A stretch of DNA of 64,000 bases from a virus (taxonomy: Duplodnaviria; Heunggongvirae; Uroviricota; Caudoviricetes), in the IMG/VR virus record IMGVR_UViG_3300020576_002722, positions 1 to 64,000 of that record; one strand, written 5' to 3'. Below the pieces are notes generated by a model, which saw only the letters and a list, made by a program, of their open reading frames with translations, was not told where the DNA came from and ran no database searches. This document shows, piece by piece, positions 4,160 through 64,000 of the stretch. Each line of letters begins with the position of its first letter. The first letter of the stretch is position 1. The translations under genes and the position numbers were made by a program.

Positions 4160-5823
4160 TGGCAACTGGAGGACCAGAGACACCGCTGGCTACTGGCCAG
4201 CCTGACATTGAGTCGGCCATCTCTGGTGCGGCGGCAACGTCAGTTGCGCCAACCCCAGAGGTTCCGGCGGCCGTAGATCCGTCCGCTGTTGATGCTGCCA
4301 ATGCGCAGGCGCAACAGGGTAGTGGCATCAGGCCGACACTCAAGGAGCCCACGATGCCGAACGCCCGTCTCGGCCCTCTGCGTCTCACCCAGGCGGACTT
4401 CTACGGGCAGCCGAACCCGGATACGATCCAGACCAGGACTGGCCCAACCACTGTGGCCAGCTTCGGTCAGGTGCCGCTCGCTATCTCCGGTATGCAGCTG
4501 GCCGAGATCCAGAAGCAGAGGGCCGAGACGCAGAAGGCCATCAAGGACTTCGACATCAACTCCGGAATCGGTAACGCCCCGAGCCCGTATCAGCGGAACT
4601 TCAAGAACCTGGCCATGACCGACATGGATACCTTCCTTCAGAAGGCGATCCAGCTGCACGGTGGCAACAAGGCAGAGGCCGTGAAGGAGCTGATGGACCC
4701 GACCAGCGAACTGAACGCTGCATGGCGGAAGAGGTCTACCCAATGGGAGGCCATCGGCCAGCAGGCGCAGTTCAAGTTCAAGCAGGCCAGCGACCTGTTG
4801 GATGCGGCCAAGACCGGAAAGATCCAGGTATCCCCGGATGCGATGAAGGTGGCCCAGGAGGCGCTCAATGGTATCGGTGAGTTCGGCGGCCCCAAAGGAG
4901 GCGACGTCATGGAGCTGACAGATACGCTGAAGCGCTTCGATCAGATCATGTCCCGCGAGGCGTACATCCAGGACTTCGCAATTCCCGGAATTGAAGCCCA
5001 CATGGCCGAGAAAGGAATCGCGCCCAAGACCACGCGCAACAAGTACGGCCAGCTGATCACTACCTACGGAAAGGAGAAAGACCTGTCTTTGTTCAGGGAG
5101 CAGGCAGCGAAAGACATGGCGTGGCGCGGCATCGGAGAGGGGAACACGATGGAGGAGCGCATCAAGAACAACAAGAAGGCTCTCGATGCTGCTCTTCCGA
5201 GCGACCAAGAGGTTCAGATCGCGATCACCAACCCTCACGCACCGTCCAGTTCCTCTTCGTCCGCAGACGTAAGGCCGAAGCCGGCCATCAGCACAGGCAT
5301 GTCTCCTGCGTCCAGGTACGACCTTGGCAATACAGGATCGGCTGGACAGGGTGTTCCGTCGACGATGGTTCCAACGCTATCCTTCTCAGAGAAGGTCGGC
5401 GACAAGATGGTCCCTATGGCCCCTCGTGAGTTTGACGGACCAAGTGGCCAGGTCAAGATACAGGCACCCGAGTTCAAGTACATCAGTGGCCACTGGCGGA
5501 TCGTTGGACGCGGTACCGGTACCACCAACGAGGCCAGGGACGTTGTTGGCGCAGCACCGACAAGGGGTTCCATCAGTAGCGCTAAGGGCCGGTCGAACGG
5601 CTCGACCGAGTACGAGGTTACCAAGCAGCGCGAGGGACGAATGGAGTTCCTCGACTACGAAAAGAACATACCCAGGGTAAAGAGTTACTTTGGCGAGGAT
5701 TTCGATATCTGGAATGTCGTCAAGGAGAAGGCGCAACAGAAGGGCCAGGCATGGGATCAGGCCGCATTCGATGCGCTTCCTAACGGTACCCGCCAGAAGG
5801 TAATGGACTACCTGTTCCAATGA
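4159..5823 (+). CDS. hypothetical virion protein (554 aa)
   Basis: Long ORF. Its start overlaps the upstream stop (TGATG) and its stop overlaps the next start (ATGA). I did not recognise any motif. Confidence 0.7.
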   Translation: MATGGPETPLATGQPDIESAISGAAATSVAPTPEVPAAVDPSAVDAANAQAQQGSGIRPTLKEPTMPNARLGPLRLTQADFYGQPNPDTIQTRTGPTTVASFGQVPLAISGMQLAEIQKQRAETQKAIKDFDINSGIGNAPSPYQRNFKNLAMTDMDTFLQKAIQLHGGNKAEAVKELMDPTSELNAAWRKRSTQWEAIGQQAQFKFKQASDLLDAAKTGKIQVSPDAMKVAQEALNGIGEFGGPKGGDVMELTDTLKRFDQIMSREAYIQDFAIPGIEAHMAEKGIAPKTTRNKYGQLITTYGKEKDLSLFREQAAKDMAWRGIGEGNTMEERIKNNKKALDAALPSDQEVQIAITNPHAPSSSSSSADVRPKPAISTGMSPASRYDLGNTGSAGQGVPSTMVPTLSFSEKVGDKMVPMAPREFDGPSGQVKIQAPEFKYISGHWRIVGRGTGTTNEARDVVGAAPTRGSISSAKGRSNGSTEYEVTKQREGRMEFLDYEKNIPRVKSYFGEDFDIWNVVKEKAQQKGQAWDQAAFDALPNGTRQKVMDYLFQ

Positions 5824-21543: not shown

Positions 21544-22017
21544 ATGAGCGTACGACGCATTGAACAGGTCATGATGCAGGTGTTTTCCTTTGGGGACAAC
21601 ACTGTATCCAAGGTGATCACTGTGATCCTGTCGGCGGCAGCTGGATTCATCGCCCCCATCTGGCCTTTCCTGGCCCTGTCGTTCGTGCTTTCCGGATTCG
21701 ACCTGTACACTGGTTGGCGCAAGAGTAAGAAGCTGACCGGATCATCAGTAACATCCAAGGGGCTCGGAGGAACAGTAGAGAAGATTGTCCTGTACAGTCT
21801 GGCCATCCTGCTGGCCGAGGGCGTGCGAGTGGTGTTCGGCCTGGATGACATTTGGGGTCTCAATAAGATGACCTACGTGGTGGCTGGACTGATCGCGTGG
21901 CGTGAGCTTCTGAGTTGTTTTGAGAACATCTCCATAGTGATAGGTTGGGACCTTGTCGGTGAGTTCAAGGAGGCTATAAGGAATGGCGTGGCATCCATCT
22001 TCAGGAGCAAGTCTTAG
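21544..22017 (+). CDS. holin (LL-H/holin_4-like)
   Basis: The start MSVRRIEQV is chosen after the upstream stop. There are several TM segments and the motif GFDLYTGWRKSKKLTGSSVTSKGLGGTVEKIVLY, which resembles the DxxTG...S...G..KK core of this holin family. Confidence 0.65.
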   Translation: MSVRRIEQVMMQVFSFGDNTVSKVITVILSAAAGFIAPIWPFLALSFVLSGFDLYTGWRKSKKLTGSSVTSKGLGGTVEKIVLYSLAILLAEGVRVVFGLDDIWGLNKMTYVVAGLIAWRELLSCFENISIVIGWDLVGEFKEAIRNGVASIFRSKS

Positions 22018-22543
22018 CGAACTCTTTGTGTAGCCTTTTGGCTGCATCAACGTATGCCTCATGAGCCTTTTGTGGATCGTCAAACACGCCCAGGTAGTAG
22101 TGCTTTTTGTTGGCTCCTATCTGGGCGACCCATTTGTTGCACTCCTTACTCCACGACACCCCTTTGAATCCGCTCTTGTTCCTGGAGTCCATGCTTCGAT
22201 TCATGTTGTTTTGACTCCTAGTAGCGAGCCTGAGATTGGACAGGGAGTTATTCCAGGGGTTATTGTCGATGTGATCAATGACCATTCCTTTGGGGATCAC
22301 CCTCCCCAGCATGGACCAGATGACATGATGCGCCGCCATCCTTTTGTAGTCAACACATACGGTTACCTGAAGGGCGGATCCATCTGGTTTTGTGCTTTTG
22401 CTTCCGGCCACCTTTCCGAGGTCGCGAACAAGGAACGTGTTGTAAGCCTGATTGCTTCCAAAGGACTCTCTTGGGCGCATCTTGAACGTAAGGTCCCCAG
22501 AGATGGGATCATAGTTGAATCGGTCAGAAAGGTTGGTGGTCAT
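22001..22543 (-). CDS. HNH-AP2 homing endonuclease
   Basis: Only the C-terminal 180 aa of track ORF 22001..23650 are credible. They carry IDHIDNNPWNNSLSNLRLATRSQN (HNH_3) followed by GFKGVSWSKECNKWVAQIGANKKHYYLGVFDDPQKAHEAYVDAAKRLHKEFA (AP2). The locus has lower GC and is convergent with the holin gene, overlapping its last 17 nt. Confidence 0.85.
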   Translation of the reverse strand: MTTNLSDRFNYDPISGDLTFKMRPRESFGSNQAYNTFLVRDLGKVAGSKSTKPDGSALQVTVCVDYKRMAAHHVIWSMLGRVIPKGMVIDHIDNNPWNNSLSNLRLATRSQNNMNRSMDSRNKSGFKGVSWSKECNKWVAQIGANKKHYYLGVFDDPQKAHEAYVDAAKRLHKEFAKTCS

Positions 22544-22565
22544 GCTTGTTTGTAATTGCAATATG

Positions 22566-22573
22566 CAAACATA
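22566..22573 (-). promoter_or_regulatory. TAnnTTTG -7 box (TATGTTTG) for the HNH-AP2 gene
   Basis: The sense strand reads CGTATGTTTGCATATTGCAATTACAAACAAGC-ATG, with 22 nt to the start codon. Confidence 0.45.
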
Positions 22574-22765
22574 CGACAAAGTCTTGACGCCACCCCAGCA
22601 AGAAGGCTTGATTTGCATGTTCCGGAAATCGTTGTACATTCGCCGCCGTGGAGCGTAGGTCTGTCTACCATCCCGAGGGGAGAAAGTCTTCGTCAGCCCT
22701 GTCGGTAGGTCTTCGGCAGTACCACCACATCGAGCCCGCTCCCATTCCAACGAAACCACCCACAC

Positions 22766-23770
22766 ATGGCAGGAAAGCAAAGCGTTGCAGGGCAGATCGT
22801 AGAGCAGTATTGCAAGGACTTCCCGAAGATCAACAACGGAAGGCTGGCAAGAAAGATCGCAGAGGAACACCCACAGCTGGGGACCAGTGAGAAGATCCGA
22901 TGGCAGGTAAGGTTCTACCGTCTCCAGGCCGGGAAGACGCACCGCGACACCAGGAAGAAGAACGGTCACGCTCACATGGAGAAGGAGTCCGCTTCGAGCA
23001 ATGTGTACGAGCTTCCTGAGCCACGCATCATTGAGCGGGTCCCGTTCAAGATGCCAAGCTCGATCCGCAAGCTGCTTGTGTTCTCGGACATCCACGTACC
23101 GTACCACGACATGGACGTGGTCAAGCGTGGCATCGAGTTCGGCAAGAGCGAGGGGTGCGATGGGATTCTGCTGAACGGCGACACAATGGATATGTGTGGG
23201 CCATCGTCGCATGATCCGGATCCACGCAGCCTGGACCTTCCGTCCGAGCTGGAGGATGGACGCCAGTTCCTCAGGCACCTGAGGAATAAGTTCCCTAACA
23301 TCCCCATCTACTTCAAGGACGGGAATCACGAGAATAGGCTGGAGCGATATCTGATCAAGCAGGCACCCGTCCTGCTTGGCGTGGATGATTTCGAGCTGCG
23401 CAGCCTGCTCCGCATGGGCGAAGTGGGCATCCAGTGGATCGGCGACAAGCGCCTGTTCCTGGCCGGCAAGCTGGTCATCATACATGGCCACGAGTACAAG
23501 GGCGCGGGTGGTGTCAATCCGGCCAGGTGGCTCTCGCTGCGCACGTCCGGATCGATCATGTGTGGTCACTTCCACCGAAGCTCCTCGCACTTCTCCAAGT
23601 CCATCATGGACGAGATCTCTGGTGCCTGGTCTACCGGATGCATGTGCCACATGAGTCCCGACTACTCACCGTACAACCAGTGGAACCACGGGTTCGCGAT
23701 GGTCCACGTCAACAAGGACAAGACCTTCGAGGTTGAGAACAAGATGATGATCGGTGGCAAGGTACGATGA
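22766..23770 (+). CDS. calcineurin-like metallophosphoesterase
   Basis: The motifs appear in canonical order: FSDIHVPYHD, NGDTMD, GNHENR, IIHGHE, GHFH. Confidence 0.85.
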   Translation: MAGKQSVAGQIVEQYCKDFPKINNGRLARKIAEEHPQLGTSEKIRWQVRFYRLQAGKTHRDTRKKNGHAHMEKESASSNVYELPEPRIIERVPFKMPSSIRKLLVFSDIHVPYHDMDVVKRGIEFGKSEGCDGILLNGDTMDMCGPSSHDPDPRSLDLPSELEDGRQFLRHLRNKFPNIPIYFKDGNHENRLERYLIKQAPVLLGVDDFELRSLLRMGEVGIQWIGDKRLFLAGKLVIIHGHEYKGAGGVNPARWLSLRTSGSIMCGHFHRSSSHFSKSIMDEISGAWSTGCMCHMSPDYSPYNQWNHGFAMVHVNKDKTFEVENKMMIGGKVR

Positions 23771-27692: not shown

Positions 27693-28117
27693 GCAACGGA
27701 AGGATCATCGCCATCGATTTCGATGGCACATGCGTAACGCATGAGTACCCGAAGGTCGGAAAGGACATCGGCGCTGTGCCCGTCCTGAAGGCGCTGGTAG
27801 AGGCTGGACATGCCCTGATCCTGTACACGATGCGATCAGGTCAGACGCTCAATGATGCAGCCGACTGGTTCCGAAGGAACGGGATAGGGCTGACGGCCGT
27901 AAACGTGAACCCGTTCCAGTCTACCTGGTCCAGCTCGCCCAAGGTGTACGCTCAGTTGTACATCGATGACGCAGGGTTCGGGGCACCACTGGTGCTTCCG
28001 GATGGAGAACAGCGTCCGCACATTGATTGGGCGTTGGCTGAGAACTGGCTACGCCTGGCCGGGTACCTTCCCCAAGTCAAGGAAGCCAAGCAAGAAGAAC
28101 AAACCACCGAAGTATGA
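27689..28117 (+). CDS. HAD-superfamily phosphatase
   Basis: The start MSNGRIIAIDFDGTCV carries HAD motif I (DxDGT). ATGA coupling at both ends. Confidence 0.7.
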   Translation: MSNGRIIAIDFDGTCVTHEYPKVGKDIGAVPVLKALVEAGHALILYTMRSGQTLNDAADWFRRNGIGLTAVNVNPFQSTWSSSPKVYAQLYIDDAGFGAPLVLPDGEQRPHIDWALAENWLRLAGYLPQVKEAKQEEQTTEV

Positions 28118-30618
28118 TGAAGAAACTGTTACTGATCCTGTCACTGCTGGTCACCTCACTGTGCCCCGCCCAATACCCGGCGCAGACCGCGTCGGTACCC
28201 ATCTCTGCGGTGGCCAACGTGAGTCCCGCCAAGATCACGTTGACGTGGACCGCGTTCTCCGGGACGACCGGGTTCACCCTGTACCGCAAGACCAAGGCGC
28301 AGACCACCTGGACCCAGATCGCTACCCCGGCCAGCAATGCCACTACGTATGAGGACGCCACCGCAGTGGTCGGCACCTATTACGAGTACAAGCTGGTACG
28401 AACGGCGTCGGCCGGTACGGGTTACGGTTACATCGCCGCCGGGATCACGCTTCCTGTGGTCGACAGCCGTGGCAAGATGGTTCTCCTGGTGGCCGACAAC
28501 ATGACCACGCCGTTGGCAACTCCGCTATCGCAGCTTGTCGCTGACCTTCGCGGTGACGGATGGGTGGTACTGAGGCACGACGTCAGCACGAGCGCGTCAC
28601 CAACCACGATCAAGGCCGTGATCCAGTCCGACTACAACGCGGATCCAACGAACGTGAAGGCGGTGTTCATCTTCGGGCACGTCCCGGTACCCTACTCCGG
28701 CAACATCAACCCGGACGGGCACGGCAACCACCAGGGCGCTTGGCCCTGCGACGGCTACTACGGTGACATGGATGGAGTGTGGACCGACAGCACGGTCAAC
28801 AACACGTCGTCCAGCGCTGACGGAACCAGGAACGACAATGTACCGGGTGACGGCAAGTTCGATCAGAGCAGCTACCCGAGCGCACTTGAACTCCAGGTGG
28901 GTCGCGTTGACCTGTACAACATGGAGTCGTTCTCGTTCTACGCTGGACTCAGCGAGACGCAGCTGCTGACCAACTACCTGACCAAGCTGCACAACTTCAA
29001 GATCAAGCAGTTCACTCCGACGTTCAGGGGTGGCGTGTTCGACAACTTCGAGGACGTGTCGCAGCCATTGCTAGCTGGCGGATACCGCAGTGTGTTCTCC
29101 AATGTGGGCCCATCCAATACCACCGACTGGAACGGTAACGGTTCACCGTACAGCTCCTACATCAACGGGCAGAGCTACCTGTGGACGGCGACCGCCGGCG
29201 GTGGACAGTTCACCAGCTCGCAGAACGTGACCAGCACAGGTGAGCTGGCTCAGTCGGTGGTCAACGGTGCCATCTTCAACCAGATGATCGGCAGCTACTT
29301 CGGCGACTGGGACTGCATGAACAACTTCCTCAGGGCACCCTTGTGCAGCGGCAACGGTCTCACCAACTGCTACAACGGGCTCCCGGCCTTCTTCTGGTTA
29401 CACCACATGGGCATGGGCGACAATATCGGGTACGGTACCCTGGTCTCCATGAACAACGTGGCCACTACTGGGACCTATCAGCCACAGGGACCAGCCTACC
29501 AGGGGGTGAGCGCCGGCAATAACCGGGTGAACATGGGCCTCATGGGGGACCCCAGCCTCCGCCAGATCTCCGTGGCACCACCTTCCAACCTGGCCATCAC
29601 CAACTCAGGAGGGTTCGCCTCGTGGTCTTGGACGGCGGCAAGCGGATCACCGCTCGGCTACCACGTATACGACCTGGGTACCGGATCTACTGCACCGGTG
29701 AGGCTTACGACGGATCCAGTGAATGCCACCAGCTGGAGCCCTGGCACCGTCCCTTTCGTCGCGGCCCGTCAGTACATGGTACGAGCGGTCGTCCTCACGA
29801 CCGGGGCCACCGGCACTTACTACAACATGTCCCTGGGGGCACTGGGGACATCGGCATCTACTCCGACCATCCTTGTCAGCCCGCGTGCATTCCTGGAGGG
29901 ACCATACGTCAGCGGCGTAGGCACAATGTCCGACGGGCTCCGCACCCTGTCCACGTTTCCCCTCAGCGATCCATATCCAGCGCTCGGCTACGTACACGTT
30001 GGGACCGGCGCTACTGGAACCATCAACGCTTCGGCTCTCACTGTTACCGGCAACAACGCCATCGTTGACTGGGTTGTCGTTGAGATACGATCCAACGCTT
30101 CCCCGTATGCTGTCGTTGCAAGCAAGAGTGTCCTCGTCCAGCGCGACGGTGACGTTGTGGATCGGGATGGTACCTCGGCGGTATCGTTCCAGGTCGCGGC
30201 GGCTACATATCGGGTTGCGGTGAGGCATCGGAACCACCTGGGTATCATGTCTGGTGCCGGTATCGCGCTCACCACGACGACCACTGCCGTCAACTTCACG
30301 TCGACCAACACATCGATGTATGGAACCAGCCCGCGCAAGCAGATCATTGGATCATTCACCACCTGGGTCATGTACGCCGGCGATGTGAACTTCAACCGCC
30401 AGATCAAGTACGTGGGATCGGCCAACGACAACGACCCGATCCTCGTGGCCGTGGGTGGAACCACACCGAACAACACGATCACCAACACGTACAGCGGTGC
30501 CGACACGAACATGGACGGCCTGATCAAGTACACGGGCAGCCTGAACGATCGCGACATCGTCCTGGTGAACGTTGGCGGAACGACACCGAACGCAGTGCGT
30601 AACGCGCAGTTACCGTAA
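28114..30618 (+). CDS. large secreted protein with an FN3-like domain and C-terminal Asp-rich (calcium-binding/dockerin-like) repeats
   Basis: Signal peptide MMKKLLLILSLLVTSLCPAQ. The FN3-like segment is PAKITLTWTAFSGTTGFTLYRKTKAQTTW...YYEYKLVR. The C-terminal repeats are GDVNFNRQIKYVGSANDNDPILVAVGGTTPNN and GADTNMDGLIKYTGSLNDRDIVLVNVGGTTPNA. Confidence 0.8.
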   Translation: MMKKLLLILSLLVTSLCPAQYPAQTASVPISAVANVSPAKITLTWTAFSGTTGFTLYRKTKAQTTWTQIATPASNATTYEDATAVVGTYYEYKLVRTASAGTGYGYIAAGITLPVVDSRGKMVLLVADNMTTPLATPLSQLVADLRGDGWVVLRHDVSTSASPTTIKAVIQSDYNADPTNVKAVFIFGHVPVPYSGNINPDGHGNHQGAWPCDGYYGDMDGVWTDSTVNNTSSSADGTRNDNVPGDGKFDQSSYPSALELQVGRVDLYNMESFSFYAGLSETQLLTNYLTKLHNFKIKQFTPTFRGGVFDNFEDVSQPLLAGGYRSVFSNVGPSNTTDWNGNGSPYSSYINGQSYLWTATAGGGQFTSSQNVTSTGELAQSVVNGAIFNQMIGSYFGDWDCMNNFLRAPLCSGNGLTNCYNGLPAFFWLHHMGMGDNIGYGTLVSMNNVATTGTYQPQGPAYQGVSAGNNRVNMGLMGDPSLRQISVAPPSNLAITNSGGFASWSWTAASGSPLGYHVYDLGTGSTAPVRLTTDPVNATSWSPGTVPFVAARQYMVRAVVLTTGATGTYYNMSLGALGTSASTPTILVSPRAFLEGPYVSGVGTMSDGLRTLSTFPLSDPYPALGYVHVGTGATGTINASALTVTGNNAIVDWVVVEIRSNASPYAVVASKSVLVQRDGDVVDRDGTSAVSFQVAAATYRVAVRHRNHLGIMSGAGIALTTTTTAVNFTSTNTSMYGTSPRKQIIGSFTTWVMYAGDVNFNRQIKYVGSANDNDPILVAVGGTTPNNTITNTYSGADTNMDGLIKYTGSLNDRDIVLVNVGGTTPNAVRNAQLP

Positions 30619-31606: not shown

Positions 31607-31990
31607 TCAGCGCCCGGATCGAGGGTAGAAGACCCCTTTCATGTAGTCGTTCACGTCTGTCATGAACTCCTCTAGGGAGCGGCATTCATAGACTATCCAT
31701 CCAGCCTCTGAGAACCTGATCTGCATCTCTTTCTGTGACTCGGATAGCTTGCCTTTGTCAGACTTCATCTCGATGGCCATGCCGCAGACGTGCGTATCTC
31801 CATACGTCCTGGGATGGCACACCAGGATATCAGGGACTCCGGCCAGTACCCCCATGTCCTTCCACAATTTCCCCATGTGTGGACTCCCGGCATCTCTGCC
31901 ATTGGGAGGGTGGAACGCCAGGACGTTAGGGTACTGTAACCGGAGCCACTTGATACACGCCTTCTGGAGCGCTTGTTCTGGACGCTTCAT
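31607..31990 (-). CDS. VRR-NUC (PD-(D/E)xK) nuclease
   Basis: The start MKRPEQALQKACIKWL has an ATGA overlap with the RNA ligase stop. The catalytic motifs are GVPDILV ... GMAIEMKSDKGKLSESQ. Confidence 0.8.
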   Translation of the reverse strand: MKRPEQALQKACIKWLRLQYPNVLAFHPPNGRDAGSPHMGKLWKDMGVLAGVPDILVCHPRTYGDTHVCGMAIEMKSDKGKLSESQKEMQIRFSEAGWIVYECRSLEEFMTDVNDYMKGVFYPRSGR

Positions 31991-33063
31991 TCCTCGTACT
32001 TGAGAAGGAACTGAGGATTGATCGCCTTGAACGATATGCGTCCACGGGTCACCGTCTTGCCGGTGATGAAGGTCTCGGTCATCTCTTCCAGGCTGCGCAC
32101 CACGATCCCCTCGGCCCATACGTCGGGGTTGATGGCGCTCTTGCGGGTGGCGAAACCAACCAGCTCGTCAACACTGAGGGCACCAAGGGTGAGGCAGTCG
32201 ATGTACGGGACCATCTTCAGGTCCATCGATCCGAATGCGACTGCGGCATCGCTAGGCAGGTACGGCTTGCCGGCATCGATGTCGAACACGTTGAAGAAGA
32301 GAACCTTGCGGCCGGTCAGCTTGTACTTGTTGCCCTGGATCCCTTCGCCGATCAGCTCGCCCTGGATGGCGATGTTCTTGCCGTAGTCGCGGAGCTTCTG
32401 CTCGACGTTCATCTCTCGGGCGTACTGCCAGAACGCATTCCTTTCGTCCTCCTTCAGCTCCAGGTTGCGCGAGCAGACCCCGAACTCCCCGTTGTACAGG
32501 TAGAAGGTAGCGCTGCTGCCGTCCATCTTCTCGCGGATCTCCACCTGCGCTGCGGCGTACTTGTCCAGGATGCCTGGCATGTTCTGGATCCGCTCCTCGT
32601 CCGTCTTGTGGATGAAGGATGGGAAGTAGCCGCGCACGGTACCGCCCAGGCAGGCCGGGATGGCGGGCTCGTACTTGATGATGCCGAGCAGCTCTGTCAC
32701 ATCGTACCCTTCTGCTGACAAGCCCAAGGCTGCGAACAGCTCGTGCTCGGCCGTGATAACATCGGCAAGGATCGACACCGGCATCATCAGGCCCTGGGAT
32801 ACCTGTCCCTTGAGTTTGATGGTGCGCACACGCATGTGGCGTGGCTTCATGAACTCGAACTCTGGTCGGTCAGGAAGGATGCTGTCCGGCTCTATGAATA
32901 CGATCGAATCGCCAATTCTGTGTCCGGCATCGTTCCTGATCACGCACTTCCACCCCAATACGCTGGCTACGGACACTTCGTCGGCTCCGGGTATTGGCTG
33001 GATGTCAGAGATCGTCTGTATGCTTGCAAGTTTTCTGCTCATGATTTTGTGTTTGAGAGCCAT
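31987..33063 (-). CDS. ATP-dependent RNA ligase (DRB0094/Rnl5-like)
   Basis: The N-terminal module is RKLASIQTISDIQPIPGADEVSVASVLGWKCVIR. Nucleotidyl-transferase motif I is EKMDGSS (KxDG). Downstream motifs are EGIVVR and ISFKAINPQF. Confidence 0.85.
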   Translation of the reverse strand: MALKHKIMSRKLASIQTISDIQPIPGADEVSVASVLGWKCVIRNDAGHRIGDSIVFIEPDSILPDRPEFEFMKPRHMRVRTIKLKGQVSQGLMMPVSILADVITAEHELFAALGLSAEGYDVTELLGIIKYEPAIPACLGGTVRGYFPSFIHKTDEERIQNMPGILDKYAAAQVEIREKMDGSSATFYLYNGEFGVCSRNLELKEDERNAFWQYAREMNVEQKLRDYGKNIAIQGELIGEGIQGNKYKLTGRKVLFFNVFDIDAGKPYLPSDAAVAFGSMDLKMVPYIDCLTLGALSVDELVGFATRKSAINPDVWAEGIVVRSLEEMTETFITGKTVTRGRISFKAINPQFLLKYEE

Positions 33064-54119: not shown

Positions 54120-56063
54120 ATGGCAACCCGCACCGGTACGATCTTCGTCCTGAACTTCGACCCAAGGCCAGTGCCATCGGGTGACATCTGGATCGAGGTT
54201 CCGGGTGAGTACGACCAGGCCACCAACACCCGCAGGTTCAAGTTCAAGGTCGGCACCGGGCAGACCGCTTACAAGTATCTCCCGTACGGGCTGATCGGAG
54301 AGGAGACCGCCGCGCCGGCATCGACCGGCGGCAACATGGTCGGTCCCGCGTCGAGCACCGACAACGCACTGGTCCGATGGGACGGCACCACCGGTAAGCT
54401 GACCCAGAACTCGGTCATCGTCGTCTCTGACCTGGGAGCCATCACCGGGATCCTGTCGCTGAACGGGAACACGTTCGGGCCTACCCCAGGGGTACTGATC
54501 GTCCAGGGCAACGCGCTCACCCTCCTGTCGTCCGGGGCAGCCGCCGCAGGCCAGGTGGCTACCGCCGATGGGGCCGGCAACATCACATGGGTAACACCGA
54601 CAGCTGGGACAGGAGACGTCGTTGGACCGGCATCCGCCGTAGATGGCCACATCGTACAGTTCGACGGGGTAACCGGTAAGCTGATCAAGGACGGCCTGGC
54701 GACGTCCGCCGGCGGGAACGGTACGGCCGACTCCGGGAAGGTCCCTGTGTTCGGCGCTGACGGAAGCCTGTCAGTGGCCAATACAGGAGGCTCCGGATCA
54801 GCTCTGCTGGCCACGTCCGACGTTGCCTTCTTGCCCGCCGTGAACGCACTCAGCAATGGGAGCGGGCCGGCCGGCGCATTCTACAACAGCTCCACCGGCG
54901 ACGGGGTCAACGCATCGGTGAACGACGGGTACGCCGTATTCGGACTGAACGACTCGATAACGGCACCCGCTGGCCACTTCCAGAACGTGGACCCCACGAA
55001 GACTGGGGACCTTGGGCAGTTCCACAATGCCGATGACGACGGGCTCATCATCGAGAACGACGGTGGCCTCGACTGGACGACCCCTACTGGAGCGCAGTCA
55101 ACGGCCACCAATCTGCCCGTGTTCAGTGCTCTCAAGAAGGGAGTCGTGCCGGCGGCCGGCGCAGTACCATCGGCCACCAAGTTCCTGGACGAGACCGGGG
55201 CCTGGGCAGTTCCTCCGGACACCGATACCGGGATCACCCAGCTCACTGGAGATGTCACGGCTGGGCCTGGAAGTGGATCGCAGGCAGCTACGCTCGCCTC
55301 CGTCATCACGGCTGGTGGGCCGACGGGTAGCGCTTCGGTCGTCCCGGTCATCACCTATGACGCCAAGGGGAGGTTGACCGCCGTGTCCACGGCAACCATT
55401 ACACCTGCCGCTATCGGCGCTCCGGCCGGGTCAGGTACAAGTACAGGAACGAATACCGGGGACCAGACCAACATCTCCGGGAACGCGGCAACCGTTACCA
55501 CCAACGCCAACCTCACCGGCCCGGTCACGTCGGTAGGTAACGCCACCACGATCGCGGACCCAGAGCTGGCGGCTATCGCAGCCCTGACAAGCGCAGCGGA
55601 CAAGACCATCCAGTTCACTGGATCCGGAACGGCGGCACTGGTGAACTTGAAGGAGGGTCCGGAAGCGGCCTACACTGGAACGATCACATGGACAGCCGGA
55701 GCGGCCCCGTCTGGAGCGTCGTCACTCAGGCAGTTCTATACACAGGTCGGCAACCAGGTGTCGTGGCAGATCAGCTTGACGTACGCCAACACCGGAACTA
55801 CCGTAACGAACGTAGTGTTGACCTTCCCCACTGAATTCCCGACACCCGCGATACCATCAGGCTTCACGGGTGCCAGCGTTCGCCTGTACAGTTGCGACAA
55901 CGTACGCTTGTTGAGTACGCCCACCGGCTCGCTCGCTAATGCAACGGGCTTCTTCGTGATGCGGAACGCGGCTGATACCGGGTTCGATATCAAGAGCACT
56001 GGTACGTTCGCATCCGGATCCTATCGCACGTTCATCTTCGGTGGAACATATTTCACCTCCTGA
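54120..56063 (+). CDS. second tail fibre protein
   Basis: 647 aa. The repeated motifs are MVGPASSTDNALVRWDGTTGKLTQNS and VVGPASAVDGHIVQFDGVTGKLIKDG. The sequence is Gly/Thr/Ala-rich, and the segment KKGVVPAAGAVPSATKFLDETGAWAVP is fibre-like. Confidence 0.8.
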   Translation: MATRTGTIFVLNFDPRPVPSGDIWIEVPGEYDQATNTRRFKFKVGTGQTAYKYLPYGLIGEETAAPASTGGNMVGPASSTDNALVRWDGTTGKLTQNSVIVVSDLGAITGILSLNGNTFGPTPGVLIVQGNALTLLSSGAAAAGQVATADGAGNITWVTPTAGTGDVVGPASAVDGHIVQFDGVTGKLIKDGLATSAGGNGTADSGKVPVFGADGSLSVANTGGSGSALLATSDVAFLPAVNALSNGSGPAGAFYNSSTGDGVNASVNDGYAVFGLNDSITAPAGHFQNVDPTKTGDLGQFHNADDDGLIIENDGGLDWTTPTGAQSTATNLPVFSALKKGVVPAAGAVPSATKFLDETGAWAVPPDTDTGITQLTGDVTAGPGSGSQAATLASVITAGGPTGSASVVPVITYDAKGRLTAVSTATITPAAIGAPAGSGTSTGTNTGDQTNISGNAATVTTNANLTGPVTSVGNATTIADPELAAIAALTSAADKTIQFTGSGTAALVNLKEGPEAAYTGTITWTAGAAPSGASSLRQFYTQVGNQVSWQISLTYANTGTTVTNVVLTFPTEFPTPAIPSGFTGASVRLYSCDNVRLLSTPTGSLANATGFFVMRNAADTGFDIKSTGTFASGSYRTFIFGGTYFTS

Positions 56064-58487: not shown

Positions 58488-58584
58488 GATTGGAGGAGGC
58501 AAGGGTAAGAGGTATCACTGAGTAATGCAAGAGGAATTTTCGCCTCACAGGTCAACTCGCTGATACTCAGGTGGAAAATTTCCT

Positions 58585-58594
58585 ACCTTCGCAT
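58585..58594 (+). promoter_or_regulatory. class II motif TACCTTCGCA
   Basis: Fourth copy, 22 nt before the ATG of the small + strand gene. Confidence 0.45.
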
Positions 58595-58615
58595 GTTCAA
58601 ACGAGAGAACGTTAC

Positions 58616-58969
58616 ATGGAAATCACTTTCGCACCCACCGGCCAGGTCGTTGATACGGCTTTCGCCACGCCCCAGAAAGGCACCGTCATCGCCCCGGTAG
58701 GTATCCCCTATCTGAATGTCCCCGACACCGATCCTCCGACCACCCCGTACGACGGAGTGATCGTGGACGGTGGAAGCTCCCTGTACCCGATCATGGGTGG
58801 ACCGGTGTACAACCTGTCCTTCTATGGCCCCGGTGGGACCCTGAAGGTGGCCGACTTCGCTATGGAAAGCGAGGCCGCTATCGCCACCGCTCAGGCTACC
58901 ATCGCTACCGCCCTGAACGCGACTACCGCTGCCATCACGCTGAACGCGGACGGAACGCTCGGTTCCTAA
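58616..58969 (+). CDS. hypothetical protein (117 aa), a stand-alone transcription unit
   Basis: The start is MEITFAPTGQ. It is flanked by a promoter-like decamer and a terminator. The C-terminus is Ala/Thr-rich. Confidence 0.6.
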   Translation: MEITFAPTGQVVDTAFATPQKGTVIAPVGIPYLNVPDTDPPTTPYDGVIVDGGSSLYPIMGGPVYNLSFYGPGGTLKVADFAMESEAAIATAQATIATALNATTAAITLNADGTLGS

Positions 58970-58993: not shown

Positions 58994-60508
58994 TCAGCCC
59001 TGAGAGGGGCTTTTCTTGTTTGCCATCCTCTCTGCCACTTCTGCCCTGATCCGGTCGAACTTGGCCTTGTCCTCCTCGGCCTTCCTGTTTATGTAGGCGG
59101 CCGTACCTCTCTCCGGAGGGGACTTCATGATGATCGTATTGACCCTGTCGACCCAGTTGATATCGAGCATCTTGGCCAGATCCCTGATCACGCGGTAGTC
59201 CCCCCTGCGCCAGGGCTCCCACTCGACCGACCCAAGGTGCTGCGAATGGAAGGCGAACGAGATCCCGCTGATATCGCCGGCCACGATCTTGCCCCAATTC
59301 TCGTTTGACGGTATCAGCTTCTGTCCGGACATGGTCCTCCAGATCGTCGTCTGGTCAGGATGCAGCTCGCTGGCGATGTTGGCCAGGCCATTCGGCGCAA
59401 TGATATCGTCGTCGTCCAGGTACATGACATACCCGGATCGCACATGTCTGGCCAGCTCATTCAGGTACCTGTTGGCAGCCAGTGGTGCCGCGTAGTCTGG
59501 CCCACCTGGTGGTGCACCGACTGCGTACGGATGCACGCGCACCTTGTAGAACGGGTATTTGCAGATGAACCTGAATGTGTCGTCATCATGGTACGACGCG
59601 ATGACGTTCCAGTTGCGGTACAGCTGACCCTTCAAGCTGCTGTACAGCCTCTCGATCCCCTGCTCCCTGCGGTGGCATCGGACCAGGATGTTGATCAGCG
59701 GATCCTTGGCCACCCACTTGGAGAACACGATGGCGCACAGGTCGTCGTATGTATGTACAACCTTTATGATCGATCCACCCAGGTCCGGGTACCAGTTGTT
59801 GAAGCTGTTGATGTTGGGCCACAGCTCTCGGCACTCCTTGGAGTAGATGATGTTCTCGCCCCCGAAGTAGCTGCACAGGATCGAGTGGCCACCGTTCATG
59901 GTGATAAATCGCTCGCAGCCGGCGAACACTCGGCACTGTACCTCATTGAAGTCGCCCCCATGCGAGTCGACCAGGTCGTTCATGAACACGACCTCAGGGT
60001 ACTCCCTGGCGATCATGTCGTAGTCTCCAAGGTCCATCGAGTGGGCCGTATCCTCAAGTTCCTCGTTCCCGCGCACGTTCACGTACACGACCGTGTGGTC
60101 CGGGATCAGCATGTCGAACAACCTGCGCAGCGTCGGCAGGTCGAAGTAGTTGATCGGGCCACGACCCCACTCGCTATTGTAGCGGTTGCAGATGCATACG
60201 GTAGGCTTCTCGAACGTGATCGCGTCGGCCGAGAAGTGCTCCTTCAGCGGAGGTGGACGCCACTTGTCCTTGTCGAGGATTGGCTTATGGATCCTCATGT
60301 TGGGGATCTCCTTCACCGCCTCATTCGTGGCCTCGAAGCTGCGCTGCTTCGGATTGATCTGGTGGTCCGGCGAGAACCAGTATAGTGGCTCGCTACCTGG
60401 GCCACTGATGGTCCCCTCCAGGGTCCCGTTCAGGAAGTGGTAGTACGCGTACGGGAGCGTAGCGATCAGCTCGTACCCGAACTCAGTGTTGTGGCTGTTG
60501 ACTCTCAT
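58994..60508 (-). CDS. two-domain glycosyltransferase (C-terminal GT-A/family-2-like with a DxD motif)
   Basis: 504 aa. The C-terminal half carries INILVRCHRREQGIERLYSSL...YVMYLDDDDIIAPNG, typical of the GT2 nucleotide-binding and DxD regions. The N-terminal 250 aa form a separate alpha/beta-looking domain. Confidence 0.7.
   Translation of the reverse strand: MRVNSHNTEFGYELIATLPYAYYHFLNGTLEGTISGPGSEPLYWFSPDHQINPKQRSFEATNEAVKEIPNMRIHKPILDKDKWRPPPLKEHFSADAITFEKPTVCICNRYNSEWGRGPINYFDLPTLRRLFDMLIPDHTVVYVNVRGNEELEDTAHSMDLGDYDMIAREYPEVVFMNDLVDSHGGDFNEVQCRVFAGCERFITMNGGHSILCSYFGGENIIYSKECRELWPNINSFNNWYPDLGGSIIKVVHTYDDLCAIVFSKWVAKDPLINILVRCHRREQGIERLYSSLKGQLYRNWNVIASYHDDDTFRFICKYPFYKVRVHPYAVGAPPGGPDYAAPLAANRYLNELARHVRSGYVMYLDDDDIIAPNGLANIASELHPDQTTIWRTMSGQKLIPSNENWGKIVAGDISGISFAFHSQHLGSVEWEPWRRGDYRVIRDLAKMLDINWVDRVNTIIMKSPPERGTAAYINRKAEEDKAKFDRIRAEVAERMANKKSPSQG
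58996..59021 (+). terminator. rho-independent terminator
   Basis: AGCCC-TGAGAG-GGGCT is followed by TTTCTTGTTTG. It lies inside the 3' end of the convergent glycosyltransferase gene. Confidence 0.55.
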
Positions 60509-60749
60509 TCTCGCAAGCTATGACCTGCGTATTGTCCAGGGTCTCGCAGTGCCGGCATCCGGATGTCGTGGACTCGATCCACTCGTGGCCGTTGGTACAC
60601 TGGAACACCTTGATCGATACGGTTCGATCGTGGAAGTGATAGCCGTCGTCATCGTTGATCCTGAGGAGGGGCCCCTCTTGCTCGGTCTCCTCCATCAACT
60701 GTGGCCTGCTTCTCAGACCATCCCTCTTGCACACCGGACATTCGCTCAT
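60483..60749 (-). CDS. small zinc-ribbon protein (88 aa)
   Basis: CPVC...C..GH...CRHC. ATGA overlap with the macrodomain stop. Confidence 0.55.
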   Translation of the reverse strand: MSECPVCKRDGLRSRPQLMEETEQEGPLLRINDDDGYHFHDRTVSIKVFQCTNGHEWIESTTSGCRHCETLDNTQVIACENESQQPQH

Positions 60750-61204
60750 AGTTTCCAGAGATTCTTCTCAAAGGTATCAGGAATCCTGAAGTCGATGATC
60801 TCTCGGACCACGTTCCAGTTGAGGCCACCCAGGTGGCATCCGATCAATGGGAAGTTGATCGCAAGTGTTCCGTCGATCGCAGCCAAGACGGCTACCTGTT
60901 GCATACACGCATCCATCGCATCGTAACTCGCATACTTCCTCCCGTCCTTTCCGTAGAACTCCTGCGTGAAGCAGTTCATGACGATCGTGTTGTCGCTGCC
61001 GAACAGATGTACCTCTTGAACGTCACCAAGCAAGTGGCCTCCAGGTCTCTTGGACGCAACATGCTTCAAGTACTCAGTGAACACTTTGGGCCACTTGTTC
61101 CGGATGGCGAGCGCCACACCAGATCCCATCACGCCTTGGGTATTAACCCCGTGCAGGATGATGCCTTTCGCGGTGAGAAGGTCACCCTTGATCTCGTTGA
61201 TCAT
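60746..61204 (-). CDS. macrodomain protein (ADP-ribose-binding/hydrolase, Poa1p-like)
   Basis: The sequence is MINEIKGDLLTAKGIILHGVNTQGVMGSGVALAIRNKWP...NFPLIGCHLGGLNW. ATGA overlaps at both ends. Confidence 0.8.
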   Translation of the reverse strand: MINEIKGDLLTAKGIILHGVNTQGVMGSGVALAIRNKWPKVFTEYLKHVASKRPGGHLLGDVQEVHLFGSDNTIVMNCFTQEFYGKDGRKYASYDAMDACMQQVAVLAAIDGTLAINFPLIGCHLGGLNWNVVREIIDFRIPDTFEKNLWKL

Positions 61205-61986
61205 TTGAAGTAGGAGTCGATGCGTTCGCGGATCTCCCTCATGCTTCCAGCCCTAGTGATCACCCCGTCAGCGAACACCACATCGAAGGCGCAGTCGTGA
61301 ACATCTTCCCATGATGCCTGCTCCTGCAATAGGAACCCGTGATCGTGGTCGTGGTGTACAGCCAGGAGCCCCTTGGCGCTGTTCTTTCCACCATTGTCGG
61401 TCTTCGGCTTCTTGAAGATCTCGCGAGGCTTGTAGTTCACCACTCCGTAGGTGGCCTTGATCGCCATGCCGTAGGTGTCACGGGTCACATACTGGTACGT
61501 GTAGCTGCCGATGCCGAACACGACATTGGTGCTGGCGAACCCTTTCGCGATCAGCCTGTCGACGATCTTCTGGGCACGCTCCGGGGTGATGCTGTCTCCG
61601 TAGATGGCACCGATATGCGGGTCGAGAACCTTGAATCCCTTCTCGTTCACGGTACCTCCGAAGGTGTTCCATAGGCACTCAATGAGCCCTTTGCCCTCTG
61701 GGGTCATCTTGGTAAAGGTTCTAGTACCAGGAAGATGGTATCCGCACAGGATGTCCACCGGATCCCCGCTGTCTGGCCTGATCACCACCTTGCCTTCACG
61801 ATTCATGATCTCTGATTTCAGGGCCGGCAGATACTCGGTGACCACCTTCCAGAAGTCCCATGTGTCGCTGACGATGCTGATGATCCCGGACGGATGTACC
61901 TCAGTGATCAGGCGCTTGAAGTGGAGAAATTCCCCTCTTGTAAGTCTCTCTTCTTCAGAGAGTTTCCTTGTCCGTGTTTTCTTCAT
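61201..61986 (-). CDS. NAMPT/Namat-like phosphoribosyltransferase, C-terminal half
   Basis: FKRLITEVHPSGIISIVSDTWDFW, VVIRPDSGDP, IYGDSIT and VFGIGSYTYQ are the conserved C-terminal NAMPT motifs. The gene has its own ATG (MKKTRTRK...). Confidence 0.85.
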   Translation of the reverse strand: MKKTRTRKLSEEERLTRGEFLHFKRLITEVHPSGIISIVSDTWDFWKVVTEYLPALKSEIMNREGKVVIRPDSGDPVDILCGYHLPGTRTFTKMTPEGKGLIECLWNTFGGTVNEKGFKVLDPHIGAIYGDSITPERAQKIVDRLIAKGFASTNVVFGIGSYTYQYVTRDTYGMAIKATYGVVNYKPREIFKKPKTDNGGKNSAKGLLAVHHDHDHGFLLQEQASWEDVHDCAFDVVFADGVITRAGSMREIRERIDSYFK

Positions 61987-61993
61987 ACTTTTG
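61986..61993 (+). promoter_or_regulatory. TAnnTTTG -7 box (TACTTTTG) for the intervening HNH gene
   Basis: It lies 19 nt before the ATG at 62013 and overlaps the start codon of the NAMPT C-half on the other strand. Confidence 0.4.
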
Positions 61994-62012
61994 CTGTCGT
62001 TAACATGACCCT

Positions 62013-62675
62013 ATGATCGGGACAAAGATATGCTCCAGATGCAAGGATCGAAAGGTTCTTGACGAATTTCCAGTGAACTCCAGGTTCCCGGACGGAAGGA
62101 ACTCCAAATGCAAGCTCTGTACGAACGCACTGAACAAGGCTTACAGGGACTCCAATAAGGAGGCATTCTGCGCATCCAGGAGAAGGCACTACATAGCAAA
62201 CCTGGAGAAGATGCGATCTGGAAGGCGAAAGTACGCCGCATCCAACAAGGACAAAAAGAGCCAGTATGATGTATCGTACAGGGCTCAAAACAAATCCAAA
62301 ATAGCGGCCTACAAGAAACAGTGGGAAAGGAACCTCATGAGTGACCCTGTGTTCAGGATCAAGAGAAACCTTCGCCGCAGGATTAGTCACGTCCTTAACG
62401 GAAGACTGAAGACGGCAGATACGTTCAGCCTCGTTGGATGTACGCCGTCCGAGTTCAGGGACCACATTCAGTCCCAATGGACCGAAGGGATGTCCTGGGA
62501 TAACTACGGATACCGTGGATGGCATGTTGATCATGTGATACCGTGCTGCTCATTTGATCTGTCTACCGAGGATGGCCAGAGAAGGTGTTTTCACTTCAGC
62601 AACCAAAGGCCGCTATGGGCATTAGACAACCTTCGGAAGGGCAGGAAGATCCCTGACCCACTTCCATTGTCCTGA
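62013..62675 (+). CDS. HNH homing endonuclease, antisense between the two NAMPT halves
   Basis: The N-terminus has Cys pairs (CSRCK...CKLC). The HNH core is GWHVDHVIPCC...NQRPLWALDNLRKG. The gene has lower GC, and its 3' 54 nt overlaps the 3' end of the NAMPT N-half (convergent). Confidence 0.85.
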   Translation: MIGTKICSRCKDRKVLDEFPVNSRFPDGRNSKCKLCTNALNKAYRDSNKEAFCASRRRHYIANLEKMRSGRRKYAASNKDKKSQYDVSYRAQNKSKIAAYKKQWERNLMSDPVFRIKRNLRRRISHVLNGRLKTADTFSLVGCTPSEFRDHIQSQWTEGMSWDNYGYRGWHVDHVIPCCSFDLSTEDGQRRCFHFSNQRPLWALDNLRKGRKIPDPLPLS

Positions 62676-63452
62676 CGCCTCGTCGTACTCCTCTTCAACC
62701 TCCAGCACCTCTTCTGCATAATCTGTTGATGCAAGGCAGCAGACAGCATGTTCTGTGGCCGGCACCGAGTATCCGTCTGCACCTCCGTAGTACTCGTCAC
62801 AGAAGTCGAGCGCAGCGAACGTATCGGTCCCAAGGAACGATGTCAGGTGCGCGGCACCGCTCATGATAGCGGCCTCCACTCCGAACATCCCGCGCATCGA
62901 GAAGTCGTGGCCCTGGAACTTGACGAAGAACTTGTCGCCGCCACTCATTTCTGCGGCCCCCTCCAGGATCTGCCGGTACCGGAACGCCGTAGTTGCTGAC
63001 GTGATCATCGGCCACAGGGTGACAGACATCAGGGTCTCCAGGTAGTTCGGCAGCCAGTAGGCGCTCGGGTGCGTGTTGTAGGTCACCAGGAACGGGACCT
63101 TTGTCCGGACCTTTGATCCTTCAGGCAGCGCCATGATCGTGATCGGCAGGTATCCTAGATCATGCAGCTCTTCGATATGCTTCATCGATACCTTGTCGGG
63201 CCCAAGGTACGCGTCGATGCGCTTCTTGTAGGCAGCGACCGCGTCAGCCTTCGGAACCCCGAAGAAGGATTCATTCCACTCCTTTATCAGGTAGCGCTTG
63301 ATGTAGTACTTGAGGCCAAAGAAGATGTTGTAGTCGACACCAGGAATGCGGCTGCTCCTTGATGTCATGTTGTTGAACACGAGCGACGTTCCTTCCGGGA
63401 ACATGGGCGCATGTCCCACCTTGTATCCGTCTGTCAGGTTGAGCGCTTTCAT
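62622..63452 (-). CDS. NAMPT/Namat-like phosphoribosyltransferase, N-terminal half
   Basis: The start is MKALNLTDGYKVGH (TDSYK-type motif). It also has FQGHDFSMRGM, LGTDTFAAL and SVPATEHAV. It ends with a 30-aa tail encoded opposite the HNH 3' end. ATGA overlap with the Prs-like stop. Confidence 0.85.
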   Translation of the reverse strand: MKALNLTDGYKVGHAPMFPEGTSLVFNNMTSRSSRIPGVDYNIFFGLKYYIKRYLIKEWNESFFGVPKADAVAAYKKRIDAYLGPDKVSMKHIEELHDLGYLPITIMALPEGSKVRTKVPFLVTYNTHPSAYWLPNYLETLMSVTLWPMITSATTAFRYRQILEGAAEMSGGDKFFVKFQGHDFSMRGMFGVEAAIMSGAAHLTSFLGTDTFAALDFCDEYYGGADGYSVPATEHAVCCLASTDYAEEVLEVEEEYDEASGQWKWVRDLPALPKVV

Positions 63453-64000
63453 ATCTCTGTGCGGTTGATGCGTGATTCGTCGATACTGTCGAGCATGAAC
63501 GAGTTGGTCGTGTAGATGGCGTCGATTCCGTCGTTCAGCAATACGTCTAGGCCGTGCGTGAAGAGGCCGTGCGTGGCGCATAGGATGACCTTCTGGGCTC
63601 CGGCGTACTTCAGCTTCTTGGACAGCTCGATGAACGTCCTTCCTCCGTCGCAGATGTCGTCGACGATGATGACATCCTTATTGAGTAGGTCTGCTCCCAT
63701 GATCGCACCTGGGATCACTTTTCCGTCCTCCCTCCTCTTCGTCGTGAAGCAGATGCCATTGGTGTTGCCAACTGCGGCCGACATCAGGTCCACGCGCTTC
63801 ATGGCACCCAAGTCTGGTGCGCAGAACACAGCGTCAGGATACGCGGCCTTCGCAGCCATGACGTGGCCGACGAACCGCATGGTCGTGTAGTTGTCGATCA
63901 GCGCCGGCATCACATCGCTGTGCGGATCCAATGACATCACGCTCGTGTACCCCTGCGCATTGATCAACTTAGCCATGACCGACGCCGACAGGGCCTCCCC
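63449..64000 (-). CDS. ribose-phosphate pyrophosphokinase (Prs)-like protein, 5'-truncated by the window edge (candidate Adps)
   Basis: The frame is open to nt 64000. The PRPP-binding loop is VIIVDDICDGGRT, and the segment VILCATHGLF is typical of the Prs C-terminal domain. Confidence 0.85.
   Translation of the reverse strand, partial: GEALSASVMAKLINAQGYTSVMSLDPHSDVMPALIDNYTTMRFVGHVMAAKAAYPDAVFCAPDLGAMKRVDLMSAAVGNTNGICFTTKRREDGKVIPGAIMGADLLNKDVIIVDDICDGGRTFIELSKKLKYAGAQKVILCATHGLFTHGLDVLLNDGIDAIYTTNSFMLDSIDESRINRTEI

Follow-up and report, generated by a model that had tools for sequence, protein, structure and literature searches.

The window analyzed here comprises 64,000 nucleotides (nt) of a virus of the class Caudoviricetes (IMG/VR record IMGVR_UViG_3300020576_002722, positions 1 to 64,000), which covers 64 kb of a genome that is at least 78 kb long. 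Window positions are used throughout, and loci used for comparison carry numbers with the prefix L. Near the right end of the window a nicotinamide phosphoribosyltransferase (NAMPT)-like protein is encoded in two pieces within a block of co-oriented genes, with an HNH endonuclease gene on the opposite strand between the pieces. A Prs-like gene (63449–64000, minus strand), probably encoding Adps (ADP-ribose [ADPR]-pyrophosphate synthetase), precedes the two pieces; its 3′ 184 codons are in the window, while the 5′ end lies outside. Next are the N-half (62622–63452, minus strand, 276 amino acids, aa) and the C-half (61201–61986, minus strand, 261 aa) of the NAMPT-like gene and a gene for a macro-domain protein (60746–61204, minus strand, 152 aa); two further ORFs (open reading frames) of 88 and 504 aa complete the block. 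The gene between the halves, for a free-standing HNH (EndoVII-like) homing endonuclease of 220 aa (62013–62675, plus strand), is antisense to the operon. Pfam matches are to Pribosyltran and Pribosyl_synth (Prs-like protein), NAMPT_N and NAPRTase (divided over the two ORFs) and Macro (PF01661, 8.8e-12).

The minus-strand ORFs all lie where the first-pass annotation of the window had placed them, with the Prs-like gene running off the window edge. The tight coupling by ATGA start/stop overlaps that it described holds at the Prs/NAMPT-N, NAMPT-C/macro and macro/88-aa boundaries, but the NAMPT halves are 635 nt apart and the 88-aa and 504-aa ORFs overlap by 26 nt, without ATGA. There is no recognizable Shine-Dalgarno sequence at any gene inspected. 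A Logan contig that is 99.9% identical to the window across 11.5 kb (L001) reaches 6.6 kb further and contains the complete Prs-like gene (291 aa, L001 6271–7146), which heads the block and is preceded by small divergent genes.

Namat is distinguished from Nampt by a selectivity clamp, which consists of a helix motif (selectivity-clamp helix, SCH) and a loop (selectivity-clamp loop, SCL) that supplies a stacking Arg, Lys or Tyr, the residue being Arg40′ in SpβL1 Namat (Lan et al. 2026, PMC12774641). The C-half encoded in the window carries the SCH motif GSYTYQYVTRD (61477–61509, minus strand; C-half residues 160–170), a site at which the sequence is GAQTYQRNTRD in the true Nampt HdNadV and GGALLQKVDRD in Xcc Nampt. 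The SCL arginine is R35 of the N-half (SRSSRIPG), which aligns without gaps to R40 of SpβL1 Namat (PRTSRVED). The N-half also holds D8, Y10, HDFSMRG, GTDT and PATEH (with the catalytic His235), while the C-half holds IRPDSGD (the Arg306/Asp308 equivalents) and IYGDS. Of the 20 residues listed as NAD+ contacts in SpβL1 Namat, 18 are identical and two are conservatively replaced (F392Y, A362S), and they are divided between the two ORFs.

In phmmer comparisons with the concatenated halves, SpβL1 Namat (9W5X) scores 486 bits, HdNadV 402 and human NAMPT ~185. An AlphaFold2 model of the concatenated halves has a mean predicted local distance difference test score of 90.9, and its top Foldseek matches are 9W5X and 9W5W (target-normalized TM-score 0.92–0.93). 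Identity to the SpβL1 and FADO Namats is 45–47%; nothing in INPHARED exceeds 48% amino acid identity, and an IMG/VR search using the N-half only returned no close relative. Its identification as a Namat is supported by every sequence-level test. The first-pass annotation had read the Prs-like and NAMPT-like genes as a NARP1-type module for rebuilding NAD+ and had proposed comparing the NAMPT-like protein with Namat and NadV; both the clamp residues and the ranking of 9W5X and 9W5W ahead of NadV bear this reading out, as does the ATGA-overlapping Prs-like partner, which shares derived motifs with Adps (see below).

The division of Namat between the two ORFs is clean. The N-half matches positions 16–268 of the 500 in phrog_448, 7–239 of the 465 in NF006629 and residues 10–252 of 9W5X, and the C-half matches positions 263–497 of phrog_448, 240–462 of NF006629 and residues 254–488 of 9W5X (260 bits), so that the NF006629 profile breaks between positions 239 and 240. 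The 635-nt gap holds the plus-strand HNH ORF, which also overlaps the end of the N-half by 54 nt (its last 18 codons). This split by an antisense homing endonuclease was missed in the first-pass annotation. Because the NAD+-contact residues are divided between the polypeptides, the halves would have to reassemble.

Each half ends at the break in a short extension. The N-half has a C-terminal tail (residues 243–276, TDYAEEVLEVEEEYDEASGQWKWVRDLPALPKVV; 62625–62726, minus strand) with a net charge of -7, and the C-half has an N-terminal head (MKKTRTRKLSEEERLTR; 61936–61986, minus strand) with a net charge of +4; the signs of these charges are the same in L007, L009 and L010. One-piece Namats (~483–490 aa) are without these ~51 residues after the catalytic His. 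A search of 5.8 billion proteins with the N-half recovered many relatives of 270–300 aa that span 94–97% of the query, including the tail. About 35 of the 120 best N-half relatives have the motif VEEE[FWY][DN]E..W near the protein end, preceded by ...ATEHSVA.L and ~10 residues, and an alignment of 25 sequences has E254 throughout and W263 in at least 90% of cases. In the C-half search, ~25 relatives start with the head motif M[KT].R[IK]R.L[TS]E.E[KR]L..GEF.

Both extensions evolve as protein. In comparison with L177, a relative with 78% identity, the ratio of nonsynonymous to synonymous substitution rates (dN/dS) is 0.06 for the tail, 0.055 for the N-half core, 0.056 for the whole N-half and 0.22 for the C-half. 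All 17 head residues are identical between the window and L177, although synonymous sites differ (proportion of synonymous differences, 0.27). The low dN/dS of the tail and the unchanged head despite synonymous change indicate that both are translated and constrained. In a DSSP summary of the AlphaFold2 model, the tail forms strands at residues 251–257 and 262–265 (EVEEEYD and QWKW), the head forms a strand (TRTRK) followed by a helix, all three strands coincide with the conserved motifs, and disorder is confined to the last eight residues of the tail.

The HNH protein matches phrog_1035 (6.9e-20) and phrog_2255 (HNH), and tblastn aligns it at ~30% identity to annotated phage HNH endonucleases. 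It has an N-terminal CxxC...CxxC and a WHVDH motif at 62520–62534, and the CxxC pairs and the WHVDH...N core are conserved in alignment. HNH genes that occupy this junction at other loci with a split Namat are 44–51% identical to it. Relative to L177 the HNH frame has a dN/dS of 0.10, while the frame on the opposite strand, of 183 aa, has 1.16, so the HNH ORF is the real gene, and it is under selection. The 183-aa ORF on the operon strand (61983–62534, minus strand; L001 8061–8612) has no family match and was rejected as a gene-calling artefact. Of the seven Logan loci covering the gap, five (L001, L003–L005 and L177) have this ORF annotated as a gene, and the 220-aa HNH gene is called in L006 only.

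The junction occurs in four states. The HNH gene is antisense in the lineage of the window (L001–L006 and L177; L176 starts inside the HNH gene) and in L015, L017 and L183. It lies on the same strand, with its start and stop overlapping the tail and head, in L009 (the Zavarzinella formosa genome), L010/L011 and L016. There is no endonuclease, only a 55-nt spacer, in L007/L008. Lastly, in L225 (25 to ~1300) tail and head are continuous in a single ORF (...SEVQEYFDEELNTWVYDSKLNTNTRTRKLTTPDEK...), a form that may predate the split or result from re-fusion. The HNH gene thus shows presence/absence polymorphism at one site in Namat. Among the IMG/VR relatives of the HNH gene in the window, the three best adjoin Namat pieces (in L015 and L016 between both halves, in L017 at a contig end beside an N-half) and the other 77 do not.

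An insert keeps its orientation when it homes by homologous repair, and the presence of the HNH gene in both orientations therefore implies either at least two independent insertions or one inversion; a neighbor-joining tree of the HNH proteins, at 40–50% identity, does not resolve one origin of the orientations from several. No close relative without the homing endonuclease gene (HEG) was found, the relatives with 92% (L176) and 78% (L177) identity also carrying the antisense HNH gene. Terminator-like matches in the 58.5–64 kb region are at chance level.

Other breaks and endonucleases were seen in the same operon and genome. In L176, which derives from wastewater, an additional HNH_3 gene (889–1422) is inserted between the Namat C-half and the macro gene, joined in frame to a duplicated 60 nt from the 5′ end of the macro gene; a second endonuclease, unrelated to the first, has thus entered this operon. 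In the window, the C-terminal 180 residues of a 549-aa ORF (22001–23650, minus strand) match phrog_99 (2.7e-59), another family of HNH endonucleases. In two IMG/VR loci (L158 and L160, ~4714–4734), the N and C parts of Namat are 7 nt out of register at the junction loop, which could reflect sequencing error, a pseudogene or another route of gene breaking.

The full-length Prs-like protein matches Pfam Pribosyltran_N, Pribosyltran and Pribosyl_synth. It also matches PHROG 619 (226 bits), a family in which Adps and Prs are not told apart, as E. coli Prs also matches it (193 bits). The motifs PHSDV and DDICDGGRTF, which replace the LHAEQ and DDMIDTGGT of E. coli Prs, are common to it and to Namat-linked homologues including those of ICP1 and FADO, and the catalytic Lys and Arg (K196 and R198) are invariant in the alignment of Prs-like proteins. 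It fails all NCBIfam Prs equivalog models. Pairwise BLAST gives 139 bits against ICP1 Adps, 87 against E. coli Prs and 64–71 against FADO Adps, values too noisy for clade assignment. Namat adjoins 97% of Adps-clade genes and rarely adjoins bacterial prs (Osterman et al. 2024). Together, motifs and gene neighborhood place the Prs-like gene probably in the Adps clade. In the phrog_12872 profile (547 positions), Adps-like proteins match positions 5–222 and Namat C-parts match 373–536, which suggests that this is a phage family of fused Adps-Namat proteins.

The macro gene lies directly 3′ of the Namat C-half, with an ATGA overlap. The first-pass annotation took a macrodomain co-transcribed with NARP1 to be undescribed; such an association is in fact already known as NARP1-AP, from a preprint of January 2026 (Osterman et al. 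2026, bioRxiv 10.64898/2026.01.28.702374), in which 15% of 859 NARP1 operons have a macro-domain gene. NARP1-AP is defined there operationally by a Macro Pfam domain (PF01661, PF14519 or PF20016) no more than two genes from NARP1, a definition that includes the macro protein encoded in the window. In Vibrio phage Gary, the macro protein Adpp converts ADPR-1′′-phosphate, the product of the aRES NADase, to ADPR, and Adpp is needed for the three-gene NARP1-AP operon to overcome aRES (bioRxiv 10.64898/2026.01.28.702374). The suggestion in the first-pass annotation that the macrodomain could clean up ADPR-1′′-phosphate matches this result.

As a proxy for Gary Adpp we used gp176 of Vibrio phage Athena, a phage of the same genus (Thalassavirus) in which the macro gene lies between Adps and Namat. 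The macro protein of the window matches phrog_335 (‘phosphatase’, 1.4e-37), and Athena gp176 matches the same PHROG over the same profile span (1e-50). The two share H..N....MG.G.A and P.IGC.L.G..W in a global alignment, while the pairwise BLASTP match covers 23 residues only. The macro protein also matches yeast Poa1p (6LFT) at 9e-5. It is a probable Adpp-type ADPR-1′′-phosphate phosphatase.

The last two genes of the block are tied to the module by co-orientation only, and their inclusion in it by the first-pass annotation is not supported. The 88-aa ORF (60483–60749, minus strand) has a cysteine-rich, zinc-ribbon-like pattern (CxxC...CxxC) and is kept in L177; the cysteines agree with its earlier description as a zinc ribbon, but it has no Pfam, PHROG or NCBIfam match. 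The 504-aa ORF (58994–60508, minus strand) had been called a glycosyltransferase. This label is weak, as a GT2-like stretch of ~37 residues scores 22.2 bits against a Pfam cut-off of 23.3 and there is no PHROG match. Beyond it lies a convergent plus-strand ORF (58571–58969).

Elsewhere in the window, the five large ORFs scanned (554–1116 aa; e.g., 46–3396, 4159–5823, 28114–30618 and 54120–56063) have no PHROG match at 1e-5; another ORF, of 2753 aa, lies at 5820–14081. A 358-aa RNA ligase is encoded at 31987–33063 (minus strand; phrog_968, 4.3e-70), and in L007 the split Namat is likewise followed by genes for RNA and DNA ligases. In L010 (1–9480), a phage-like contig, the split Namat lies amid densely packed genes related to ADP-ribose; they encode Macro, NADAR, Tpt1/PTS_2-RNA, metallophosphatase, PARG and a nucleoside deoxyribosyltransferase-like protein and include three ORFs for ADP-ribosylglycohydrolases.

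Among species-representative bacterial genomes (GTDB; L258–L337), Bacteroidota supply most of the 80 nearest one-piece Namat homologues, of which 72 show the aromatic clamp and 60 lie within 3 kb of an Adps-like gene. Pairs of predicted Adps and Namat genes are common in Bacteroidota chromosomes, in agreement with the description of NARP1 homologues in bacteria by Lan et al. 2026 (PMC12774641). Together with the missing PHROG matches and Shine-Dalgarno sequences, this bias of the nearest homologues hints at a Bacteroidota-like host.

We consider it likely that the block is an extended NARP1-AP-type operon of a poorly characterized phage, in which Namat is a ‘gene in pieces’. Adps would pyrophosphorylate ADP-ribose to ADPR-pyrophosphate (ADPR-PP), Namat would join ADPR-PP and nicotinamide to form NAD+, and the Adpp-like macro protein would convert ADPR-1′′-phosphate to ADPR, letting the products of RES-type NADases be recycled too; the counter-defence benefit that we infer would follow from these activities. 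The HNH gene would be a homing endonuclease gene in the Namat loop, seven residues past the catalytic His and on the opposite strand. The two Namat polypeptides would be made separately and reassemble into one enzyme, probably with the help of the acidic β-hairpin tail (VEEEYDE...W) and the basic strand head (MK.R.R.L.E.EK). The halves, tail, head and endonuclease are all under purifying selection, and the two-piece form recurs at other loci.

Several points weigh against this reading, and some of them favor other functions for the flanking genes. The proposed pairing of the tail strands with the head strand goes beyond the AlphaFold2 model, which was read as a DSSP summary. A scan of 58.5–64 kb found no sigma-70 promoter for the antisense HNH gene, although the consensus used may not be that of the host. 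The Prs-like protein passes TIGR01251, the general Prs model, at 159.7 bits (cut-off 113), where reference Adps proteins score 96–98 and E. coli Prs scores 423; this intermediate score makes its placement in the Adps clade less certain. The comparison of Adps and Prs profiles proposed in the first-pass annotation is therefore divided, with the failed equivalogs and shared Adps motifs on one side and the TIGR01251 match, at 160 bits, on the other. The latter, together with retention of YARQDR and the catalytic Lys and Arg, would fit classical salvage, in which the Prs-like enzyme makes phosphoribosyl pyrophosphate (PRPP), the NAMPT-like enzyme makes nicotinamide mononucleotide (NMN), and an NMN adenylyltransferase (NMNAT) elsewhere in the phage or host finishes NAD+, as a NARP2-like or housekeeping route. 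Part of the account in PMC12774641 describes SpβL1 Namat as keeping some nicotinamide-PRPP catalysis in vitro, and the genome has room for an NMNAT, within the 64-kb window or beyond it. However, the Namat of the window has the aromatic clamp and the SCL arginine, both missing from HdNadV; the Prs-like protein fails every Prs equivalog and has the PHSDV and DGGRT motifs common to Namat-linked homologues; and tight coupling to Namat is typical of the Adps clade. We regard classical salvage as improbable.

In global alignment with the Thalassavirus proxy for Gary Adpp, the macro protein reaches no more than 28% identity, and its strongest curated match is the DarG macro domain (NCBIfam, 9e-18). 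It could instead be a TARG1/DarG-like ADP-ribosyl hydrolase that reverses defensive ADP-ribosylation (e.g., by DarT on DNA) or degrades ADPR signals, with any supply of ADPR incidental. The best PDB match of the Thalassavirus proxy is OARD1/TARG1. Proteins of this macro family are found in 1320 phage records, and in many of these NARP1 is not close by; FADO has 24 kb between its macro gene and its NARP1 genes. Against a hydrolase, the DarG score (64.6 bits) is far under the cut-off of 250 and reflects a match to the macro fold alone, the NARP1-embedded Adpp of Gary acts on ADPR-1′′-phosphate and is needed against aRES, and the macro protein of the window combines the ATGA overlap with Namat-C and homology to Poa1p. 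A hydrolase role of this kind is unlikely, though less so than classical salvage.

Splicing could also account for the interrupted Namat, if a group I/II intron with an antisense endonuclease, or a mini split intein, restored a single chain. Removal of tail, spacer and head would leave a protein of one-piece Namat length, and in the HEG-less L007 these three together measure ~200 nt, about as long as a small group I intron would be. Phages are known to have ‘fractured genes’, in which split inteins surround a free-standing endonuclease (PMC2677866), and other Namat genes appear to contain inteins: in L099 (~4925–5782) an intein-like in-frame insertion between RPD and SGDP starts with Cys and ends ...VCGN before Ser, and in L115 (~1603–2379) another, in the clamp between GIGSY and TYQYVTRD, starts with Cys and ends ...SHN before Thr. 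However, no Rfam model, whether of an intron or of another RNA family, matched the junctions in window positions 60000–64000, L007, L009 or L010 at E up to 1, and the tail and head show coding constraint, their substitutions being conservative at the amino acid level over dozens of clusters; both argue against an intron, as does an HNH ORF that fills the gap save for 26 nt. The 34-aa tail and 17-aa head are too short for a split intein and, by inspection, have neither a conserved Cys/Ser at position 1 nor a terminal Asn followed by Cys/Ser/Thr, and L225 keeps the module in one mature ORF. Splicing is therefore very improbable. Candidate group I/II introns and a split intein were rejected, as neither a ribozyme core nor intein blocks were recognized. 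The split could likewise mean that the endonuclease insertion killed Namat and that the operon is a decaying remnant, since there is a physical break in the gene, a stop codon closes the N-half and close relatives include no one-piece allele. This is hardly credible given the dN/dS of the two halves, the retention of all catalytic and NAD+-contact residues, and the presence of the two-piece form, with conserved tail and head, across lineages that are ~50% identical, including the HEG-less split allele.

As a NARP1-AP-type operon, the block most resembles that of Vibrio phage Gary, with which it shares a Prs-like Adps, a clamp-bearing Namat and a PHROG 335 macro protein with Poa1p homology in one operon. 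The gene order is Adps-Namat-macro in the window but Adps-macro-Namat in Gary and Athena; the window also differs in having Namat in two ORFs with an endonuclease gene, and two further co-oriented genes follow. The NARP1 systems of SpβL1, FADO and Bas63 (Osterman et al. 2024; Lan et al. 2026, 9W5X/9W5W) have the same Adps-Namat adjacency, SCH, SCL arginine and NAD+ contacts. Their Namats, however, are single chains of ~490 aa without the ~51-aa insertion, and in FADO the macro gene is outside the operon.

For the broken gene itself, the closest precedent is nrdA-a/mobE/nrdA-b of Aeromonas phage Aeh1. There the gene of an essential enzyme, nrdA, is split near the active site by mobE, a free-standing HNH gene, and each fragment is translated on its own (Crona et al. 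2011, PMC3045599). The NrdA fragments have unique, oppositely charged tails at the break and form a dimer with a composite active site, and tails of this kind were predicted for further fragmented genes as well (PMC3045599). The window likewise has an enzyme gene split by an HNH gene, with the pieces kept and carrying oppositely charged extensions. The polarity is reversed (acidic tail on the N-piece, basic head on the C-piece), and the endonuclease is antisense, unlike that of Aeh1. Two-piece Namat is a whole family, with HEGs in both orientations, a HEG-less form and one fused form, compared with a single phage for Aeh1; the role of the tails would be the same by analogy. The ‘fractured genes’ of Dassa et al. 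2009 (PMC2677866) are also phage enzyme genes broken with an endonuclease in the gap, but the window is without intein blocks and has extensions of 34 and 17 aa. What is new in the window is that Namat comes in two pieces, with conserved, putative assembly peptides, and that a homing endonuclease gene lies at their junction. In the literature searched, which is not all journals, no paper links Namat or nicotinamide phosphoribosyltransferase with homing endonucleases, and none describes a two-piece Namat.

We lean slightly towards a broader interpretation, that two-piece Namats are a widespread class in which a ~50-aa module after the catalytic His (acidic β-hairpin, basic strand and helix) allows encoding by two genes and reassembly without RNA or protein splicing, and in which the break point is a repeatedly re-used landing site for HNH genes in both orientations. 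If this is true, two-piece Namat would be the first family-scale case of ‘assembly tails’, so far known from one phage ribonucleotide reductase, and such tails would serve a counter-defence enzyme under strong selection.

For the biology of phage defence, the window adds a divergent member of NARP1-AP, in which the association with a macro gene, predicted purely from sequence, is in line with recent experiments. Two-piece Namats may be overlooked or wrongly annotated by gene callers, and by surveys of NARP1, that look for a protein of ~490 aa. For the biology of mobile elements, a single gene family offers a series that runs from one-piece, through fused with the module and split but HEG-less, to split with a HEG in either orientation. 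This series would allow tests of how genes fragmented by selfish endonucleases survive and of whether short charged peptides suffice to build a composite active site.

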